Shown here: piece after piece, positions 6,195 through 52,301 of the stretch
Position numbering within the stretch: position 1 is the stretch's first letter
How the letters are laid out: the number at the start of each line of letters is the position of its first letter
Source: a virus
Lineage: Duplodnaviria; Caudoviricetes
Reading direction: 5' to 3' (one strand)
IMG/VR virus record: IMGVR_UViG_3300030061_000976
Coordinates: 1 to 52,788 of that record
Length of the DNA stretch: 52,788 nucleotides
Program-made: the position numbers and the translations under genes
Notes under the pieces: model-generated
Seen by the model: only the letters and a program-made list of their open reading frames with translations
The model's database searches: none
Told to the model about the DNA's origin: nothing

Positions 6195-6728
6195 ATGCTA
6201 CGGTGGATTGGGCTGGCCGCTTTTGCGGTAGTTCTGTCCACCGGGGCAGCTTATGCGGCAGATACTGTAACGTCTGCTACGGTAAGCAGTTCAACAGTAG
6301 TTGACAAAACACCACCTACAGCATCCAGCCCTTCAATAGTCGTTAACAACAACGATATCTGTCAAGTTGGAACCAGTGGCGCTTTGCAGACTGGTCTTTT
6401 TGGTGTGTCCGGTGGCACCACCACTCGTGATCTAAACTGCGAGAGGATCAAGCTGGCACGGTCTGTGTTTGGTATGGGGCTGAAGGTTGCTGGCATTAGC
6501 ATTCTTTGTCAGGAAGTGCGTGTGTTCGACGGCCTTTGGATGGCCGGAACTCCTTGTCCGTTTATGGGCAAGATCGGGGACGCGGCGAGGCAAGAGTGGA
6601 TCAAGAACCCGGAGAAAGCGCCGGAAGGTTCTATTGTGCGGTTGCAGGTAAAAGCGGAAACTGTATCTTTGCAGCCTCAACAGAGTTCTGATTGGCCTGA
6701 CGAAGAAGAATGGTACGGAGGCGATTGA
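6195..6728 (+). CDS. Secreted Cys-containing conserved phage protein (module gene 1, copy A)
   Basis: Signal peptide ending AYA-A; PPTASSPS, DICQ, NCERIKL, ILCQ, GTPCP; near-identical mature region at 51741-52301. Confidence 0.8.
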   Translation: MLRWIGLAAFAVVLSTGAAYAADTVTSATVSSSTVVDKTPPTASSPSIVVNNNDICQVGTSGALQTGLFGVSGGTTTRDLNCERIKLARSVFGMGLKVAGISILCQEVRVFDGLWMAGTPCPFMGKIGDAARQEWIKNPEKAPEGSIVRLQVKAETVSLQPQQSSDWPDEEEWYGGD

Positions 6729-8619: not shown

Positions 8620-8919
8620 ATGGCAAAGAAATTAGAAGAGAAATCAACCTTCAACGATCTAGATGTCGATGGGGACGGAGTAGTAAGCGATAGAGAGCTT
8701 GCAATCGTTGAAGCTCACGACAATCACCGGAAGTACAAGGTTCAAGAAAGAATTGTAATATCAACAGCGATATCTATGTTTGCGTTTACGCTTGCTATGT
8801 TCTTTATGGATAACTCTAAGATAAGCGCGATGTCAGGCTTGAGTAATTTATTCTACGTCTCGGGCGGGGGTATTATCGCTGCCTTCTTTGGTTTCCAAGC
8901 CATCAAACCTAAAAAGTAG
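8620..8919 (+). CDS. Small EF-hand-loop protein with two TM helices
   Basis: DVDGDGVVSDRE (Dx[DN]xDG Ca-binding loop) followed by two hydrophobic segments. Confidence 0.65.
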   Translation: MAKKLEEKSTFNDLDVDGDGVVSDRELAIVEAHDNHRKYKVQERIVISTAISMFAFTLAMFFMDNSKISAMSGLSNLFYVSGGGIIAAFFGFQAIKPKK

Positions 8920-9078
8920 TGTCTGTCGGGCCAGCATGCAGTAATATGCCGCCGCTGGCCCTTCAGATATCTCAGCTACAGCTATTAATTCTTCTAAGCC
9001 CTTTTCCAATTGATCAACGCGCTGTTGTAGCTGTCGTATCTGTTCCATTCTGCGGTACGCCATAGAGTCAATCATCAT
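8848..9078 (-). CDS. Hypothetical coiled-coil protein
   Basis: ATG overlaps the oxygenase stop (ATGA); convergent overlap with 8620-8919. Confidence 0.45.
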   Translation of the reverse strand: MMIDSMAYRRMEQIRQLQQRVDQLEKGLEELIAVAEISEGPAAAYYCMLARQTLLFRFDGLETKEGSDNTPARDVE

Positions 9079-9659
9079 CGGAAACAGGGTCCAGACACCC
9101 AAGCAACTAAAGACCACCGCTCACCTTTGGTAATCGGCGTTATCCGGTGTGGTAGGAATGATGAGAAAGCAATCACATCACCTTTTTGAAAAGATATAGA
9201 TGAAACACCCTCTGAGAACATTTCAAAATCCCCGCCTTCATATTTATCATTTAGATTGATAATTATAGATATTTTTCGAAGTGATTCAGTGCCATTGGCT
9301 ATGTCAACGTGCCAATCATATCCATGAGACGGCGAGGTGTATTTAAGCAAAGCGCAGCTTTCAATCATTCCTGTTAGATTGTAGTTGAAGGTCTCATTGG
9401 CCTCAGCGACAATCTTACTAATGATTTCATTTGATAAAGCAACCGAGGGATGGTTAGTTCCTATAGGGTAGGCCATCACGTCTCTAATAGTTGAAACGAC
9501 TTCATATGCTCCGTTTTGATTGCCGACCTTAGCAGAAATGGGCTTTATGTTTTTTCGCAGATTGTAGAGGGAGTCGCAGATTTCATTTGAGATGCTATCA
9601 AGCTGCAAAACTCCATGAACAGTAGTATCTGTATTCGGTGGGCAGAAAAAAGACATCAA
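9075..9659 (-). CDS. 2OG-Fe(II) oxygenase (prolyl 4-hydroxylase-like)
   Basis: YDWHVD (HxD), YEGGDF, LPHRITPITKGERWSLV (distal H, RxS). Confidence 0.9.
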   Translation of the reverse strand: MMSFFCPPNTDTTVHGVLQLDSISNEICDSLYNLRKNIKPISAKVGNQNGAYEVVSTIRDVMAYPIGTNHPSVALSNEIISKIVAEANETFNYNLTGMIESCALLKYTSPSHGYDWHVDIANGTESLRKISIIINLNDKYEGGDFEMFSEGVSSISFQKGDVIAFSSFLPHRITPITKGERWSLVAWVSGPCFR

Positions 9660-9684
9660 GGCTATCCCTCGTTACCTTGATGTC
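9646..9684 (-). terminator. Intrinsic terminator-like hairpin overlapping the oxygenase start
   Basis: GACATCAAGG-N13-CCTTGATGTC perfect 10-bp stem followed by T6 on the minus strand. Confidence 0.65.
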
Positions 9685-9760
9685 ATCTGTAGCACACAGG
9701 AGCGCCGCAGATGGAAATCCACGGCTAGAGCGCGATTGGAGTCGTTATGAGGGCCGCGCT
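9646..9760 (-). ncRNA. Candidate structured sRNA with anti-RBS seed CUCCUGUGUGCUAC
   Basis: Three hairpins; seed complementary to the phage's repeated CACACAGGAG leaders; ends in a terminator. Confidence 0.4.
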
Positions 9761-9906
9761 TCATCGGTTGTTTCCTTAGACCACTCTTTGATTCTTTCAA
9801 TAGAGACGTTGTGATCAAGACATAGTTGAGTTAGAAATGATATAGCTTTTTCGTCATTTCGTTTGCAAGCATCAATTAACATATCTTTTATGAGACTTTT
9901 TTGCAT
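9745..9906 (-). CDS. Hypothetical protein (53 aa, MQKSLIKDMLIDACK...)
   Basis: Translated by hand; fills the gap in the minus-strand operon. Confidence 0.5.
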   Translation of the reverse strand: MQKSLIKDMLIDACKRNDEKAISFLTQLCLDHNVSIERIKEWSKETTDEARPS

Positions 9907-10211
9907 TCCAGAATTTCTTTCATTCGTGCGTAGATGTCTTTGGCCTCTCGAACGTCTTCTAGGGCTTTGTTAGCAATCTCTTGTATAGCCGAGCGGTAAT
10001 CGTCCACCGTTTGTATGCGCCTAAAAGCGTCCTGTGCCATAAGCGCAGATGTAGAGTCGTTAATGTCATCCTCATCAATAGTACAGAAATTTATAGAATC
10101 GGCTATCTCTATAGCTAAATTGGGCCATCGTGATACTAGATGCGTTGCGAACTCATGTCGCTCATTGTGGCTCATTCTGGCTATATGCTCAACTAAGTCC
10201 TCTTTGCTCAT
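9888..10211 (-). CDS. Hypothetical protein
   Basis: Likely start MSKEDLVEH within track ORF 9888-10355. Confidence 0.55.
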   Translation of the reverse strand: MSKEDLVEHIARMSHNERHEFATHLVSRWPNLAIEIADSINFCTIDEDDINDSTSALMAQDAFRRIQTVDDYRSAIQEIANKALEDVREAKDIYARMKEILECKKVS

Positions 10212-10222
10212 ACCGCCCCCCA

Positions 10223-10339
10223 TCATACTGGAGCCGGGGCGGTCATAGCTGCCATAAACAGCCATGCAATGTAGATAGTACCAAACAGTCCGATCAGGGC
10301 CGCTAGTTCTAGGGTAAAGGTAAGTGCTTTTTTCATCAT
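10223..10339 (-). CDS. Small single-TM peptide (38 aa, MMKKALTFTLELAALIGLFGTIYIAWLFM...)
   Basis: GCACACAGGAG RBS directly upstream; hydrophobic helix. Confidence 0.6.
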   Translation of the reverse strand: MMKKALTFTLELAALIGLFGTIYIAWLFMAAMTAPAPV

Positions 10340-10461
10340 GTTCTCCTGTGTGCAAATCTTGGTGCGAGGGCTTCTAGTGAGGGCGCCTCGCAAACCCGCT
10401 AACGTCTTAGTTTAGAGCCGTTTGTTAGCCTAACCACGTTTATACTCGTTCGGCTTGAAAA

Positions 10462-10668
10462 TTAAGTTTCAGCGCAATCCTTCTCTTCCCACAGTGCGCC
10501 ATCAGATCGTAATTCTACCCACAAATCTCTGGCTTCCTGTTTAGTAAATCTGCCCTGTAAGCCAAGTTCTCCAGTTCGGGCTGTTGACCAAACCTCAACG
10601 CCATCACTATCAGGCTTGAACATCCAAAGGTTATCAGTTGTTTCAAGGGTGTGCGTTGTTCTTGCCAT
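10462..10668 (-). CDS. Hypothetical early protein
   Basis: Near-consensus promoter and CACACAGGAG RBS upstream. Confidence 0.7.
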   Translation of the reverse strand: MARTTHTLETTDNLWMFKPDSDGVEVWSTARTGELGLQGRFTKQEARDLWVELRSDGALWEEKDCAET

Positions 10669-10702
10669 CTTATTTCTCCTGTGTGTTCGTTGCTACACAA
10701 GG

Positions 10703-10731
10703 AATATAGGAGATGCCGGACACTGTGTCAA
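10703..10731 (-). promoter_or_regulatory. Sigma70-type promoter with GACA-N3-TGTC box
   Basis: TTGACA-cagtgtccggcatctcc(17)-TATATT. Confidence 0.8.
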
Positions 10732-10734
10732 TGA

Positions 10735-10989
10735 TTATTTCCCTATAAACCAAAGATATTTTTCAACATCAGCGTGACATGATTTGCACTGCAATGTTGA
10801 CCAACCGAAGTGTCGGACTAAAGTTTTTGCTCCACATTCAGGACAAAATATCTCTTTCCCTTTTTTGCCTGCATGACACCATTTCGGCACCCTCTGGAAA
10901 AATCTGAGATCAGGGTTCCATTGCTGCATCTCTGCTATGTATTTTGATTTCTTTCTCGCGCCAAGACGGCTTAACAACCACTCAAGCAT
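10735..10989 (-). CDS. Zn-ribbon protein
   Basis: CPEC...CKSC. Confidence 0.6.
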   Translation of the reverse strand: MLEWLLSRLGARKKSKYIAEMQQWNPDLRFFQRVPKWCHAGKKGKEIFCPECGAKTLVRHFGWSTLQCKSCHADVEKYLWFIGK

Positions 10990-11930: not shown

Positions 11931-11956
11931 TAGCTTTCTCCTGTTGTGCAAAAGTT

Positions 11957-14968: not shown

Positions 14969-16711
14969 TTAGTCTGAATATGGCATTGGGGTTCTAACCG
15001 CAGCAGGGTTGTATTCGCGGTAACATTTGCGATTAGTGTCATACTCAAAAACAGCCTCGCCAAGGTTGCCGTAGTATCCTTGCTCTCGCACCTTCTTTGT
15101 GCAAACCACCGTCTTGCCTTCATCAAACAATCGATGAACAACAAGCCCAACATCAGCCATATTGTTCCAATGGGCGGCACCGCTGATGTCATACATACCC
15201 GGCACTGGGTAGCTACCATCGTCCTTTCGCATCATCTTGGCCGGGTGCGCCACAACCCACATAATAATCCCTTGGTTTCTACAGAACGCCTTACACGCTG
15301 AGATCAAATCTCTTATATGCTCGTCTTCGCGTTTTCCGGCGCTTCTGTTGGCGCTTATCTCATTATAGGGGTCTATAACCACCCCATTGATGCCATGCCG
15401 TATACAGGCCGCTCTAGCCTTTTCTAGGAGCCAATCAATCGTAGGCACACGGTCCTTACTCTCTATGAACTTGAAATGCTCATCTATAAAACTAACTGCG
15501 CCTTGCAAATCCTCTGGAGTCATGCGTTCAGATGGCCCCATATCAAAAGGTTTCTCTGTGTAAATCTCTGCCAGCCGCCTAATGTGATAGGTGCTGGAAT
15601 GCTCCGGTGAAAACAGAGCAAACTTCCAATTGTGTAGCTTGGCGGTGTTTATCAAAAGCTGGTCAATAAAATTAGACTTGCCGTGATTTGGTATCCCGGT
15701 CACTACATGGAAGGTAGCGGGTAGAAGGCGGTATATCGTATCAAGTTGCTCAAACCCGGTGCTAAAAGGTTTGACCTGTTTTCCGGCATACAAATCCCAT
15801 ACATCAGTAATGTAATCATTCGCCCTGTACACGCCGTCAATGGGGTAGTGCGTGGCGTTGTCTAAGCACTCGCGCAGCACCACCGCTCCGTGGTCAACTA
15901 AACATTCGTTGGCATCCTTGCACTGCACATCGTTGAGCGAAGGCCATTGAACCTTTAGGCACTTATCTTTGCCAAATCTGTGCGCCAGTTCAGCCGCTAG
16001 GGCTTGCCCTGCCTCATCCATATCTACAGCAATATAAACGCTTTTCATTTTTTCTAGCTTATCGCACTCCGCTAGAGCAGCAAATCGCTTGTCATCTTCA
16101 CGGTACTTCGCTTCCTTGGGAGCGCCGTCAGGTAAGGACACAGCATTTTTTATTCCAGCTTCCCAACAAGCCAGTACATCCATCTCACCCTCTACAAAGA
16201 TAATGCTGTCGCCTTCCACCGCATCAATGTTGAAAAGGGTTCGTTGGGCGTTAGCCTCTTGCTGAAACTGTTTGCTATGGGATCGGTATTTTACGTTTAC
16301 CACTTCGCCATCTAAGTGATACGGAAAGGCTACCGTTTCTTCTGGTCCATTGCCATAATTCTTCATGGCGGTAAAAATTCGGAAGGCTTCGGTGGTATCC
16401 TTGCTTATTTTGCGGTCAGCAAAAAAACTATCCATTTGGCTAGTTACCTTTAGCGCGTCAGGAACCCTTGGTTTTTTATAGGTCACTTTGATCTCCTGTG
16501 TGCGTTGGGAGCTTGGTATATTTCCGGCGTGTTCGCAGTTATGGCATAGCCACACCGCGCCGCCATCATTATCAATGGTAACAGAAAGGGGCTTGTCTAG
16601 CTTGTTTCTGCTCTTGCGAGTATATCGGCAGTTTGGGCAATATGTTTTGTAGTTGCCCGGTGTCGTGGTTCTAAGCTCAATGCCGTTCTCGCGCAGCTTC
16701 TCTGAAATCAT
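14969..16711 (-). CDS. T7 gp4/Twinkle-like DNA primase-helicase
   Basis: CPNC/CHNC Zn domain; TOPRIM (VEGEMD, DMD, KDANE); Walker A GIPNHGKS; VIDP; VAHP. Confidence 0.92.
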   Translation of the reverse strand: MISEKLRENGIELRTTTPGNYKTYCPNCRYTRKSRNKLDKPLSVTIDNDGGAVWLCHNCEHAGNIPSSQRTQEIKVTYKKPRVPDALKVTSQMDSFFADRKISKDTTEAFRIFTAMKNYGNGPEETVAFPYHLDGEVVNVKYRSHSKQFQQEANAQRTLFNIDAVEGDSIIFVEGEMDVLACWEAGIKNAVSLPDGAPKEAKYREDDKRFAALAECDKLEKMKSVYIAVDMDEAGQALAAELAHRFGKDKCLKVQWPSLNDVQCKDANECLVDHGAVVLRECLDNATHYPIDGVYRANDYITDVWDLYAGKQVKPFSTGFEQLDTIYRLLPATFHVVTGIPNHGKSNFIDQLLINTAKLHNWKFALFSPEHSSTYHIRRLAEIYTEKPFDMGPSERMTPEDLQGAVSFIDEHFKFIESKDRVPTIDWLLEKARAACIRHGINGVVIDPYNEISANRSAGKREDEHIRDLISACKAFCRNQGIIMWVVAHPAKMMRKDDGSYPVPGMYDISGAAHWNNMADVGLVVHRLFDEGKTVVCTKKVREQGYYGNLGEAVFEYDTNRKCYREYNPAAVRTPMPYSD

Positions 16712-21171: not shown

Positions 21172-21218
21172 GCTGAATTATAAGCACAATTATTTTTTAA
21201 AAAAAAGCAATATAATAG

Positions 21219-21247
21219 TTGACACCATGTCACGCATTTCGTACTCT
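21219..21247 (+). promoter_or_regulatory. Sigma70-type promoter with GACA-N3-TGTC box
   Basis: TTGACA-ccatgtcacgcatttcg(17)-TACTCT. Confidence 0.75.
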
Positions 21248-21284
21248 CTTTGTGTAGCAACAAATAAGCACACGGAGTTAAAAA

Positions 21285-22280
21285 ATGTTTTTAGGAACGC
21301 AACGTAGGTTTGGAGTTGAAATTGAGTTCGTAGGTGTTAACCGCGATGAACTCGCACGGGCTATTTCTGCACAGGGCATTGATTGCGTAGTTGAGGGTTA
21401 CAACCACCGGACGCAGAGCCATTGGAAAATTGTTACCGATGCCTCATGTGGCTATGAGATGGTTAGCCCAATCCTTCAGGGCGAAAGCGGTTTCTTCGAT
21501 CTAAAAGTTGTTATGGACACCATGGCCGGGATGGGTTGTGTGGTTAACCGCCAGACTGGGGTTCACGTTCACCTTGAAGCGATTGACCTTACCGCGCTGG
21601 ATGTAAAAAACATTGTGAAGCGTTACAAAGACAATGAGGCGGAAATTGACTCTTGGTTCCCGCGCAGCCGCCGTGCAAACAACAACACATATTGCAGAAG
21701 TGTAGCTAGCTGCATTTCCGAGATACACGGAACAGATGAATACTTGGATGCCCAGCAAGCAAGGGTGACCACTCAGTTTCTTAATACGCGATTTACTAAA
21801 CTGAACCTCGCCAGCTTGAACCGTTATAATACGATTGAGTTTCGCCAGCATGCCGGTTCTACAGATTACGTTAAGGTCTCAAACTGGATTTTGTTTCTTC
21901 AGCATTTCATGGACCAGAGCGCCAAGATGAAAAACGCGGGTGGCCCTAACATGAATGTGCGCCGCTCAAAAAACCGGGTTTACGACGAAGTGAGAACACA
22001 GATTGAAGCGGCGGGTGGCCAGATGCGCCATGCCGGCGCACAGAATTGGAAAGTAACAAGCCCTGATGGTGCTGTTCATATTTTCACTATTGAGCAGTTG
22101 GATGCGCTTTATGTTGGCAATCCATATCGAGGGCGGCGTGTTCTGGATGTGAATACAATGAGGGATTTTTGGAGCGTAGTAATCGGTACGGCAGAAGTAA
22201 TTGACGATTCTCTAAATGCAGAGATACCGAATAGCGTAGTAGAGTTTTTTGAAACCCGCCGCGAAGCACTCGCGGCGTAG
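21285..22280 (+). CDS. Putative amidoligase (Amidoligase_2, COOH-NH2 ligase fold)
   Basis: FGVEIE, WKIVTDAS, EMVSPIL, TGVHVH, LN...TIEFRQH. Confidence 0.9.
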   Translation: MFLGTQRRFGVEIEFVGVNRDELARAISAQGIDCVVEGYNHRTQSHWKIVTDASCGYEMVSPILQGESGFFDLKVVMDTMAGMGCVVNRQTGVHVHLEAIDLTALDVKNIVKRYKDNEAEIDSWFPRSRRANNNTYCRSVASCISEIHGTDEYLDAQQARVTTQFLNTRFTKLNLASLNRYNTIEFRQHAGSTDYVKVSNWILFLQHFMDQSAKMKNAGGPNMNVRRSKNRVYDEVRTQIEAAGGQMRHAGAQNWKVTSPDGAVHIFTIEQLDALYVGNPYRGRRVLDVNTMRDFWSVVIGTAEVIDDSLNAEIPNSVVEFFETRREALAA

Positions 22281-22298
22281 CACACAGGAGAAAAGCAG

Positions 22299-22727
22299 AT
22301 GTTATATTTAGCATACGGATCAAACCTTAATCTTGATCAGATGGCTGTAAGATGCCCAGACGCGGAGCCGCTTCACGGGATACAGTTAAACCACTTCAAG
22401 CTGATATTTCGCAATGTGGCGGATATCACAGAAGAAGAAGGGGCGTTAATAAATCTTGGAGTATTTAGCATAACGGATGCGTGCGAAGAGGCGCTTGATA
22501 GATATGAGGGATTCCCAACCCTCTATACCAAAATGTATCTGACTATGGATGGTGAGGAGTACATGACTTACACGATGCATAGAGATGCTATAGCGCCGCC
22601 TTCGTCTGGATATTACGACTGCATAAAACAGGGCTATCAGCATTGGGGGTTTGAAACAGACTTACTTGAAGCCGCGCAAAGAAACAGTTTCGCCATGCGT
22701 TGGGGGCTTGGAGAAATGAGAGCGTAA
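22299..22727 (+). CDS. Gamma-glutamylcyclotransferase (AIG2-like)
   Basis: YLAYGSNL, RCPDA, LDRYEGFP.LY. Confidence 0.9.
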   Translation: MLYLAYGSNLNLDQMAVRCPDAEPLHGIQLNHFKLIFRNVADITEEEGALINLGVFSITDACEEALDRYEGFPTLYTKMYLTMDGEEYMTYTMHRDAIAPPSSGYYDCIKQGYQHWGFETDLLEAAQRNSFAMRWGLGEMRA

Positions 22728-23790: not shown

Positions 23791-24364
23791 AATGTATCAC
23801 ACTGCTTTGAAAAGTAAGTTTGATACAAAGGATGTTGCTGTATCAACTAGAGTGAGCGGTGATAGATATCTTTTTCTTCAAAGTGATCTGATGGTTAACG
23901 GCATCCCTGACGAGGTGACTGATTGTGATGTTATCTATGGTGAGCCACCGTGGCCTCATGGGTTTAAGGTTTTCAATGACAGAGCAGAAGTCAGTGACAG
24001 GCGTACATACCAAGAATTTGCTAGTGTTCTAGGTTCTGAGATAAAGCGCATCAGAAAGCCGTTCTATATGACGCTAGGCAAGACCTTAATGAAAATGCTT
24101 CCATCTCACTCTGGGAGTCTTCCTGTGAAGCTAAACGGTGCAGATGCTTTCATGGTCTGGTGGTTTGATAAGTATGATGGCCCACATGATACCAATATAT
24201 CCATCTGTAAGGCGCTAGGGGCGCGGTACAGAAGCATGGGTGATTGGTGCTGCGGTTATGCCACCCCATTGCTGGCCTTTAGTGAGGGGGGCGGAAAACG
24301 CATTGTAGGGTCTGATTATGATGGGAAGTGCATAACTGTTTGCGGTGAAAGGATGAGACGTTGA
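23783..24364 (+). CDS. Divergent SAM-dependent amino-methyltransferase-like protein
   Basis: DVIYGEPPW (motif IV-like) precedes DWCCGYA...GSDYD (motif I/II-like), beta-class order. Confidence 0.55.
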   Translation: MDEMYHTALKSKFDTKDVAVSTRVSGDRYLFLQSDLMVNGIPDEVTDCDVIYGEPPWPHGFKVFNDRAEVSDRRTYQEFASVLGSEIKRIRKPFYMTLGKTLMKMLPSHSGSLPVKLNGADAFMVWWFDKYDGPHDTNISICKALGARYRSMGDWCCGYATPLLAFSEGGGKRIVGSDYDGKCITVCGERMRR

Positions 24365-32164: not shown

Positions 32165-32197
32165 TGGTTTCTCCTGTGTGTGTGTGCTTACTCATCT

Positions 32198-32226
32198 AAT
32201 ATAGGAAATGCTGGACATGGTGTCAA
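32198..32226 (-). promoter_or_regulatory. Sigma70-type promoter with GACA-N3-TGTC box
   Basis: TTGACA-ccatgtccagcatttcc(17)-TATATT. Confidence 0.8.
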
Positions 32227-32247
32227 CTATTTATTATGATTTTAGGC

Positions 32248-32309
32248 AAAAAAAATCGCCACCCGAAAGTGGCGAAGTTTCAACAGGGAGGAGTAGTCAG
32301 AAACGCATT
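32248..32309 (-). ncRNA. suhB/alpha-r8 (MmgR)-like 3'-UTR RNA with terminator
   Basis: CUCCUCCCUGUUGAAACU-UCGCCAC-UUUCGG-GUGGCGA-U8. Confidence 0.45.
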
Positions 32310-32869: not shown

Positions 32870-32897
32870 CGGTTTCTCCTGTGTGTTTGCTACCCAT

Positions 32898-32928
32898 AAG
32901 ATATAGCAAATAACGGACACCTTGTCAA
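32898..32928 (-). promoter_or_regulatory. Sigma70-type promoter with GACA-N3-TGTC box
   Basis: TTGACA-aggtgtccgttatttgc(17)-TATATC. Confidence 0.75.
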
Positions 32929-32992
32929 CTATTATTTTTACAGGGTATAAAAAACTTTACACTAAAGATGTACAGCTACATTTTTTAGGCTG

Positions 32993-51760: not shown

Positions 51761-52301
51761 TTTAGCTGTATGCCTGCTTCTAGCGTTCTGCTTGTTTCTG
51801 GCGTTTTCTTTTGTTTCTCCATCATATTCTGCTGATACAGTAACATCAGCAACGGTGTCTAGTTCAACCGTAGTTGACAAAACACCACCTACAGCATCTA
51901 GCCCTTCAATAGTCGTTAACAACAACGATATCTGTCAAGTCGGAACCAGTGGCGCTTTGCAAACTGGTCTTTTTGGTGTGTCCGGTGGCACAACCACGCG
52001 AGACTTAAACTGCGAGAGGATCAAGCTGGCACGGTCTGTGTTTGGTATGGGGCTAAAGGTTGCTGGCATTAGCATTCTTTGTCAGGAAGTGCGTGTGTTC
52101 GACGGCCTTTGGATGGCTGGAACGCCCTGCCCGTTTATGGGCAAGATTGGGGACGCGGCGAGACAGGAGTGGGTCAATAATCCTGAGAAATCGCCGGAAG
52201 GTTCTATTGTGCGGTTGCAGCTAAAAGCGGAAACGGTATCTTCGCAGCCTCAACAGAGTTCTGATTGGCCTAACGAAGAAGAATGGTACGGAGGCGACTG
52301 A
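51741..52301 (+). CDS. Secreted Cys-containing conserved phage protein (module gene 1, copy B)
   Basis: Different signal peptide; mature part differs from 6195-6728 at 6 residues. Confidence 0.8.
   Translation: MKNQFNNLAVCLLLAFCLFLAFSFVSPSYSADTVTSATVSSSTVVDKTPPTASSPSIVVNNNDICQVGTSGALQTGLFGVSGGTTTRDLNCERIKLARSVFGMGLKVAGISILCQEVRVFDGLWMAGTPCPFMGKIGDAARQEWVNNPEKSPEGSIVRLQLKAETVSSQPQQSSDWPNEEEWYGGD

Follow-up and report, generated by a model that had tools for sequence, protein, structure and literature searches.

To our knowledge, lytic phages shut off their early genes as a class by means of proteins, and phage antisense RNAs act mainly on single targets in temperate phages. In T4, RegA is a translational repressor, and RegB is an endoribonuclease that cuts GGAG in the Shine-Dalgarno (SD) sequences of early genes. 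T4 also exerts control in cis: hairpins with an anti-SD strand silence genes e, soc, 49, and I-TevI on early transcripts that read through into them. The c4 RNA of phages P1 and P7 (immI operon) is an antisense RNA made from the same transcript as its target ribosome-binding site (RBS), and its seed and target covary between P1 and P7. The c4 RNA pairs around the ant RBS, and this pairing depends on structure (PMC12197685). Here, we set beside these systems a locus on a 52,788-bp stretch of DNA (hereafter the window), which is the whole of a complete IMG/VR virus record (IMGVR_UViG_3300030061_000976). Its source is an uncultivated, lytic-looking, siphovirus-like marine phage. The locus, at 9761-9646 on the minus strand, carries a sequence complementary to the extended RBS of the phage's own early genes.

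An inverted copy of the early ribosome-binding site

As read from its sequence, the region 9761-9646 is a conserved, structured stretch of an early polycistronic mRNA that contains an anti-RBS sequence. It is placed in a minus-strand early operon, between a 53-amino-acid (aa) open reading frame (ORF) and a gene for a 2-oxoglutarate (2OG)-Fe(II) oxygenase. We compared it with relatives from viral contigs (L002, 83% aa identity) and from metagenome contigs (L103 and L104, 81%; L105, 69%; L106-L109, 48-51%; L109 is the same record as L003). The promoter and the parts of the region are, in the order of transcription:

10703-10731, minus strand: sigma-70-like early promoter, TTGACA-17-TATATT, with 11/12 consensus matches; repeat families D2/D3/I1/I2, with copies near 32198-32231, 32891-32933, and 21212-21264
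9745-9906, minus strand: upstream 53-aa ORF of the early operon; its stop TAA (9747-9745) lies inside the P1 loop, and its C-terminus ...ARPS* is kept in L002 and L105
9729-9760, minus strand: hairpin P1, 5' arm 9760-9754 (coding), 3' arm 9735-9729; 7 pairs, 100% of alignment cells paired, 2 pairs changed on one side, 0 compensatory
9704-9725, minus strand: hairpin P2, 8 base pairs (bp) and a 6-nucleotide (nt) loop; in 3/8 pairs, L105 differs from the window group at both positions, and all cells are paired
9689-9702, minus strand: anti-RBS motif CUCCUGUGUGCUAC in the minus-strand RNA, between P2 and P3; reverse complement of the early leader/RBS motif
9647-9684, minus strand: hairpin P3, arms 9684-9674 and 9662-9652, 11-nt loop 9673-9663; 11 pairs, with 1 compensatory change (A-U to G-C) and 1 replacement of C-G by U.G
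9075-9656, minus strand: 2OG-Fe(II) oxygenase gene, 193 aa (PHROG_61, E 7e-27); start ATG at 9656 (MSFFCPPN...)

The RBS motif CACACAGGAG is present in the window in 7 exact copies, and in 9 at ≤1 mismatch (shuffles, 2.62 ± 1.58; 0/100 shuffles reach 9). Six of the seven exact copies point the same way as the genes around them, each with a start codon 3-8 nt downstream (10343, 10676, 16493, 22281, 32171, and 32876); the ORFs that follow them are 38, 68, 71, 126, 142, and 505 aa long. The motif-type sites that the initial annotation had listed before promoter-proximal genes are present at those places, and the variants it had listed at 11938, 14905, and 21268 are real RBS variants. Sequences around the start codons of late structural genes have AAGGAGG-type SDs instead, so that the motif marks the early class; the gene calls behind this reading fragment genes and were used for start-codon surroundings only. 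The copies that matter most here are:

10676-10685, minus strand: early RBS motif copy of the 68-aa gene, a proposed partner (net energy, ddG, -15.8)
10343-10352, minus strand: early RBS motif copy of the gene for a 38-aa hydrophobic protein, a proposed partner (ddG -17.2)
22277-22290, plus strand: TAG stop of an amidoligase gene plus the RBS of a gamma-glutamyl cyclotransferase (GGCT)-like gene, the sole 14/14 partner (ddG -23.5)
32171-32180, minus strand: early RBS motif copy of the 126-aa gene (motif scan, cofold)
32876-32885, minus strand: early RBS motif copy of the 71-aa gene (motif scan, cofold)

The seventh exact copy (9693-9702, plus strand) lies inside the minus-strand operon, with only a 5-codon ORF, MEIHG*, after it. 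The initial annotation had pointed to an opposite-orientation copy at 9689-9702 and to a perfect match of 14 nt; both descriptions are accurate, as 9689-9702 equals 22277-22290 exactly. A wider similarity extends over 9689-9713 and 22277-22301 (21/25 nt; repeat family D18). On the minus strand, the anti-motif is complementary at 14/14 positions to 22277-22290 and over 10-11 nt to five other initiation regions. Exact inverted pairs of 14-mers are not rare in this DNA (20 in the window versus a mean of 8.8 in Markov-1 random sequences), so the significance of the match rests on its identity with the RBS motif and on its conservation rather than on its length.

The anti-motif segment (GC, the 14 nt, and AG) is 16/17 identical between the window and L105, compared with 12/22 for P2 and 4/21 for the P1 loop. 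By this comparison, the anti-motif is the most conserved portion of the intergenic RNA and is under selection. The single change in L105, C to U, retains the minus-strand pairing with the RBS motif via G.U and weakens the plus-strand SD to AAGAG. Three relatives at 48-51% identity (L107, L108, and L109) have CUCCUGUGC(AAC), i.e., CUCCUGUGCAAC, upstream of the same oxygenase gene, in leaders that are otherwise unalignable with that of the window. A seed without conservation would have spoken against the initial annotation; what we found is a seed that is kept at both of these distances. No conserved ORF accompanies it on either strand, since the relatives have 11-nt and 1-nt indels (the 11-nt indel falls in the P1 loop of L105) and have lost the plus-strand ATG.

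The anti-motif and the early RBS also differ together. Upstream same-strand genes use GCACAGGAG at 3/3 motif RBSs in L003/L109 and at 3/4 in L107 (the fourth is ACAGGAG), whereas the early genes of the window group and L105 use GCACACAGGAG. These two RBS forms track the two anti-motif forms, so that either both elements have a CA/UG dinucleotide or both lack it. We noted that the RBS of the 38-aa gene keeps its 11-nt motif intact in L105 although the rest of the leader is unrelated, a retention that, on this comparison, exceeds what an SD requires.

The distribution of the arrangement is narrow. Relatives anchored on the primase (64 loci, mostly about 49-60% primase identity) have neither motif enrichment nor the anti-motif, with ≤1 RBS-like copy per locus except in the L002 contig, and 0/8 of the oxygenase homologues located elsewhere in these loci have an upstream anti-motif. 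Among 17 loci of relatives of the L107 oxygenase in viral contigs, 0/8 inspected (L247-L254) have the leader or motif RBSs. The anti-motif is absent from L004-L007, L110, and L111; the upstream sequence of L106 is too short to judge. Exact-pattern scans of viral contigs returned the L002 contig alone. A covariance model of P2, motif, and P3 from the window group (R1), run over 915,773 bases from 92 sources, found only its own five input places (next best, E 0.38) and does not recover the L107-L109 leaders. Rfam gave no match at the gathering score over the whole window, and for 9500-9900 at E up to 10 only a snoRNA-like chance match (E 3.9).

Several observations concern the motif-type genes themselves. 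A promoter-plus-leader module of ~55-65 nt occurs in 4 copies (10673-10738, 32168-32231, and 32891-32933 on the minus strand; 21212-21264 on the plus strand), in the order of a TTGACA-17-TATATT-like promoter, GTAGCAAC 6 nt after the -10 box, and then the RBS motif. The plus-strand copy precedes an amidoligase gene (PHROG_2443) followed by the GGCT-like gene (PHROG_2520), at 21285-22727 and early promoter-driven; in the relative L083, the GGCT RBS ends in GGAA, not GGAG (last G to A). Directly upstream of the RBS motif of the 38-aa gene, a conserved hairpin GCGAGG...CCCTCGC (10355-10395, minus strand) is present in L002 too. The copy at 16484-16502 (minus strand), an exact motif plus GTG, lies in frame within a 580-aa primase/helicase gene (14969-16711) and would yield a 505-aa product; this internal start may make a shorter primase/helicase isoform.

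The structured leader and the oxygenase start

We examined the fold on a structure alignment (A2) of four sequences (window, L002, L104, and L105) that form two effective groups. A model of P1, P2, P3, and an outer helix, P3b, leaves 99.2% of its cells paired. In four pairs, of which P2 has three and P3 one, both partners are replaced; 3/500 shuffles reach 4, and partners slid by 1-3 columns give 0. With four sequences in two effective groups, these covariation statistics are supportive rather than strong. Read on the plus strand, the U.G and G.U pairs would not match; the structure is therefore one of the minus-strand RNA. A hairpin that the initial annotation had drawn at 9704-9725 is P2, present with compensatory changes in L105. 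Its alternative stem, displaying the seed in a loop, can form in the window and is broken in L002 by two uncompensated changes, so that the loop-display reading fails.

Oxygenase homologues (38-83% identity) all start at the residue matching ATG 9656 (MSFFCPPN versus MSIAIPPN and MALAI(N)P(P)K). The hairpin 9684-9647 therefore holds the SD of this gene, GAGGGA (9670-9665), in its loop and the AUG (9656-9654) within its 3' arm. The same hairpin had been annotated initially as a terminator at 9646-9684. The hairpin and its six U residues are there, and the reading as a terminator gives way to that of an initiation hairpin: this predicted structure is the translation start region of the oxygenase gene and has, as its conserved role, the closure of that start. 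Oxygenase codons 2-4 (Ser-Phe-Phe) make up the U6 run (9651-9646). A run of U6-U8 follows the 11-bp hairpin that holds the SD and AUG in 4/5 window-clade sequences (window, L002, L103, and L104), not in L105, and a terminator scan flagged just the inner 5-bp stem of P3. P3 may nevertheless terminate some transcripts in the window subclade. The phage has a canonical intrinsic terminator elsewhere, at 32256-32275 (minus strand), with an 8-bp GC-rich stem, a tetraloop, and U8, directly upstream of the 32226 promoter.

A 4-codon mini-ORF (9672-9686, minus strand) lies within P3, in its 5' arm and loop: MTSR* in the window, MTSG* in L002/L104, and a GUG-started MISG* in L105. Its start and stop positions are kept, it has no SD, and its stop lies just ahead of the oxygenase SD. 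This mini-ORF could couple translation to the opening of P3, or its position could be a coincidence.

The leaders of L107 and L108 are built differently: in their hairpin, which is supported by compensatory changes, the loop contains a strong SD and the 3' arm contains the start codon AUG of an upstream ORF (uORF) of 7-8 codons. These conserved uORFs (L107 2984-3010, MTGLPLWL*; L108 466-489, MGLFSWH*) have stops that overlap the oxygenase AUG, which probably reflects translational coupling. For the window, neither minimum-free-energy nor centroid folds contain a helix between the anti-motif and the oxygenase's own SD, and inspection gives ≤4 bp. A pseudoknot between the anti-motif and the SD in the P3 loop was likewise rejected (by inspection, the window allows ≤4 bp, and L107/L108 allow ≤5 bp). 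So was an extra 7-nt complementarity, GCAGAUG, to the GGCT start codon, which is not conserved in L002, L103, L104, or L105.

Around the locus, a GC-rich inverted repeat, GGCCAGC...GCTGGCC (8929-8965), lies between plus-strand genes that end at 8919 and the convergent oxygenase gene that ends at 9075; it may be a bidirectional terminator. The DNA at 8900-10500 has no nucleotide match in the phage collection searched, in which the nearest capsid protein to that of the window is from a Rhizobium phage (53.5% identical; nothing closer). A tRNA scan found none. A 300-nt direct repeat at 92% identity (6247-6546 and 51820-52119) and a 21-mer common to 6720 and 52293 look like paralogous genes, at 6.2-6.7 kb and near the end of the record.

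Proposed antisense control and its alternatives

The best single reading of these features, one that we hold tentatively and would not yet call probable, is antisense control of the motif-tagged early class by a co-transcribed anti-RBS element in a structured leader. The promoter at 10731-10703 would drive an operon that places the anti-motif and two motif-type RBSs (10676 and 10343) on a single transcript. The mechanism that we infer from structure, complementarity, conservation, the matching indel, and the lack of coding potential runs as follows. The largely unpaired CUCCUGUGUGCUAC between P2 and P3 would base-pair with the extended RBS and leader, (GUAG)CACACAGGAG, that tags early genes, either between molecules or with the two motif-type RBSs of the same transcript. 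Once paired, the RBS would be closed to ribosomes, and the duplex might become a target for RNases; the outcome would be negative feedback on early-gene translation. P3, with the SD in its loop and the AUG in its stem, would lock the oxygenase start. In the window subclade, P3 and U6-U8 might stop part of the transcripts, which would release a ~115-nt 3'-end RNA with a more exposed seed. A bolder form of this idea, which we regard as doubtful, extends it to a clade of uncultivated marine siphoviruses. These phages would tag their early genes with an extended RBS, (GUAG)CAC(AC)AGGAG, and the 3' end of one early operon would hold a single anti-RBS riboregulator. Accumulating in attenuated or processed form, this RNA would titrate the whole early class by pairing and double as the locked oxygenase leader.

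This reading keeps part of the initial annotation, which had proposed a candidate small RNA (sRNA) with an anti-RBS seed. The anti-RBS element is conserved and RBS-complementary; a free-standing sRNA running from promoter to terminator falls away, as no promoter was found for it and its supposed terminator is the start hairpin of the oxygenase. For an RNA-based temporal switch, also proposed there, differential stability would be needed, since one early promoter would give rise to the element and to its proposed targets alike. Covariation of seed and RBS, suggested there as a check, is seen as one matching CA/UG indel between the window/L105 and the L107/L108/L109 lineage, that is, as a single event within three lineages.

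Cofolding of the 116-nt RNA (9761-9646) with 11 motif-type initiation regions gave a median net energy of -15.7 kcal/mol (range, -12.2 to -23.5). The corresponding values were -4.3 for other early regions (n=10), -6.4 for plus-strand, mostly late regions (n=35), and -6.4 when the motif was shuffled 20x. As the motif class is defined by the motif itself, this test is partly circular, and these models show only that the seed is usable after unfolding costs.

Several results weigh against antisense control of the early class. Besides that circularity, two late initiation regions score -17 to -18. Predicted seed accessibility is only moderate (mean probability of being unpaired, 0.59-0.60 for the short RNA, compared with 0.38-0.49 for the long one). 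A genome-wide duplex scan is noisy, with 767 sites at ≤ -14 kcal/mol, and its best non-self match, at 24202, is inside a coding region. The minus strand at 9700-9900 yielded no sigma-70-like promoter from which a separate RNA could start. P3, with 11 bp and an 11-nt loop, is unlike the canonical terminator of the phage (32275-32256); L105 has the codons Ser-Phe-Ile and no U-tract, and the U-tract is itself made of codons. The relatives amount to three lineages only, in which the CA/UG co-occurrence is a single evolutionary event. The remaining points concern local pairing. The anti-motif of L109 pairs over 12 bp with UUGCAUAGGAG, the RBS of the oxygenase gene itself, and the resulting helix encloses a hairpin (z -3.9; probability of being unpaired, 0.00); on this model, the ancestral role of the element may have been purely cis. 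In the read-through RNA of L002, L104, and L105, the GUGUGC half pairs with oxygenase codons 5-6 (GCACAC).

A purely cis translational leader, which we judge a less likely account but a serious rival, would make the anti-motif an anti-SD or structural strand that closes the oxygenase start together with P3 and P3b and has no effect in trans. The oxygenase would then be made at a low level, or upon opening by coupling to the upstream mini-ORF, by processing, or from a different transcript. The L109 helix fits this account, and the oxygenase initiation region is sequestered in every lineage: the AUG lies inside P3 in the window group, where the GUGUGC pairing with codons 5-6 lengthens P3 in L002, L104, and L105, and L107/L108 have the SD in a hairpin loop, the uORF AUG in the 3' arm, and uORFs that overlap the oxygenase AUG. 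However, the oxygenase SD of the window group (GAGGGA) is not complementary to the anti-motif, and P3b has a mismatch in the window itself. The anti-motif of this group is still 14/14 complementary to the general early leader; the perfect match takes in both the UG that is specific to the clade and the GUAG from the region where the transcripts start. In L107/L108, only 5 bp are possible with the local SD, yet 18 nt around the motif are invariant. The exact complementarity to the RBS motif and the matching CA/UG indel are also left unexplained by an improbable third account, in which the leader would be a platform for protein or ribosome: a pyrimidine-rich standby or S1 site, an RNase III substrate made of P3 and P3b, or a NusB/NusE boxA-like antitermination signal plus hairpin. 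It would suit the single-stranded, pyrimidine-rich tract next to a closed initiation region and the long P3+P3b helix of L105 (z -6.5), and the GCUCUU/GCUCCU stretch followed by a hairpin presumably bears a loose resemblance to the layout of nut sites. L107/L108 lack the leading GC of the boxA-like part, the locus matches no Rfam family, and the boxA/nut-like reading was rejected, as it does not cover the conserved core.

Two further explanations deny the minus-strand element a function. That it is a chance match kept by shared ancestry is quite improbable. The occurrence of exact inverted 14-mers by chance (20 observed versus 8.8 expected) would allow it, as would the closest relatives (L002, L103, and L104), which are too similar to inform on conservation, but 16/17 positions are kept against L105 while neighbouring non-coding segments are 19-55% identical, and the sequence recurs at 48-51% protein identity where the surrounding leader is unalignable. 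A plus-strand feature, either a relic or working RBS of a (mini-)ORF or the start of an antisense transcript, is largely refuted and has next to no credibility left. The 25-nt similarity to the GGCT initiation region does include ATG 9711, and GTAGCA is also the conserved start region of early transcripts. The initial annotation had itself raised a relic RBS before MEIHG as an alternative; this mini-ORF is not conserved in relatives, as its ATG at 9711 has become AGG in L002/L103 and ACG in L104, and neither a start at RBS spacing nor any ORF follows the motif in L107, L108, or L109. The plus-strand SD is degraded in L105 while minus-strand G.U pairing is kept, a promoter scan and inspection found no -10/-35 upstream on the plus strand, and the hairpin wobble pairs suit the minus strand alone.

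Comparison with known systems

In a limited literature search, no phage RNA directed against a class of that phage's own early RBSs came up, which does not demonstrate that there is none. By analogy, c4 RNA would be the nearest known mechanism, and P22 sar a looser one (PMC12197685). Like the c4 RNA of P1/P7, the antisense element and RBS here would share one transcript: the minus strand holds the promoter (10731-10703), two motif RBSs (10676 and 10343), and the anti-motif (9702-9689). The complementary bases lie, as in c4, in exposed parts of a fold, and seed and target have one matching difference between relatives, the CA/UG indel. Unlike c4, the locus has no similarity to the Rfam C4 model, and its proposed targets are a whole early RBS class in a lytic-looking marine siphovirus rather than one immunity operon. 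The element also doubles as the leader of the next gene.

The T4 cis hairpins are matched by L109 only, in which the start of translation on a polycistronic early mRNA is shut by an SD-complementary strand upstream; the anti-motif of the window does not find its complement in the SD of its own gene. Between anti-SD and SD, the leaders of the window, L003, and L107 have no sigma-70-like site that could serve as a second promoter. The element resembles anti-SD sRNAs, including those derived from 3' untranslated regions and P22 sar (PMC12197685), in having a C/U-rich seed against the SD region, flanking hairpins, and, in the window subclade, a last hairpin plus U residues. It differs from them in that no promoter of its own was found, in that its "terminator" bears the SD and AUG of the next gene, in the absence of the U-tract from L105, and in being putative as a discrete RNA.

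Even if the role is in cis, the locus would provide a clean, covariation-supported locked initiation region in a widespread marine phage oxygenase gene. If antisense control of the early class is true, a co-transcribed RNA directed at a shared extended RBS would offer a simple means of timing gene expression, and a portable one, and it would explain why 9-14 bases are conserved at early starts where an SD needs 5 or 6. It would also be a regulator found purely from metagenomic sequence. The likeness to RegA and RegB is one of strategy: a phage product would recognise a sequence common to early initiation regions and turn the class down, the T4 agents being proteins and the agent here an RNA. 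If the clade-wide form holds, the anti-RBS riboregulator would be the RNA counterpart of T4 RegA/RegB.

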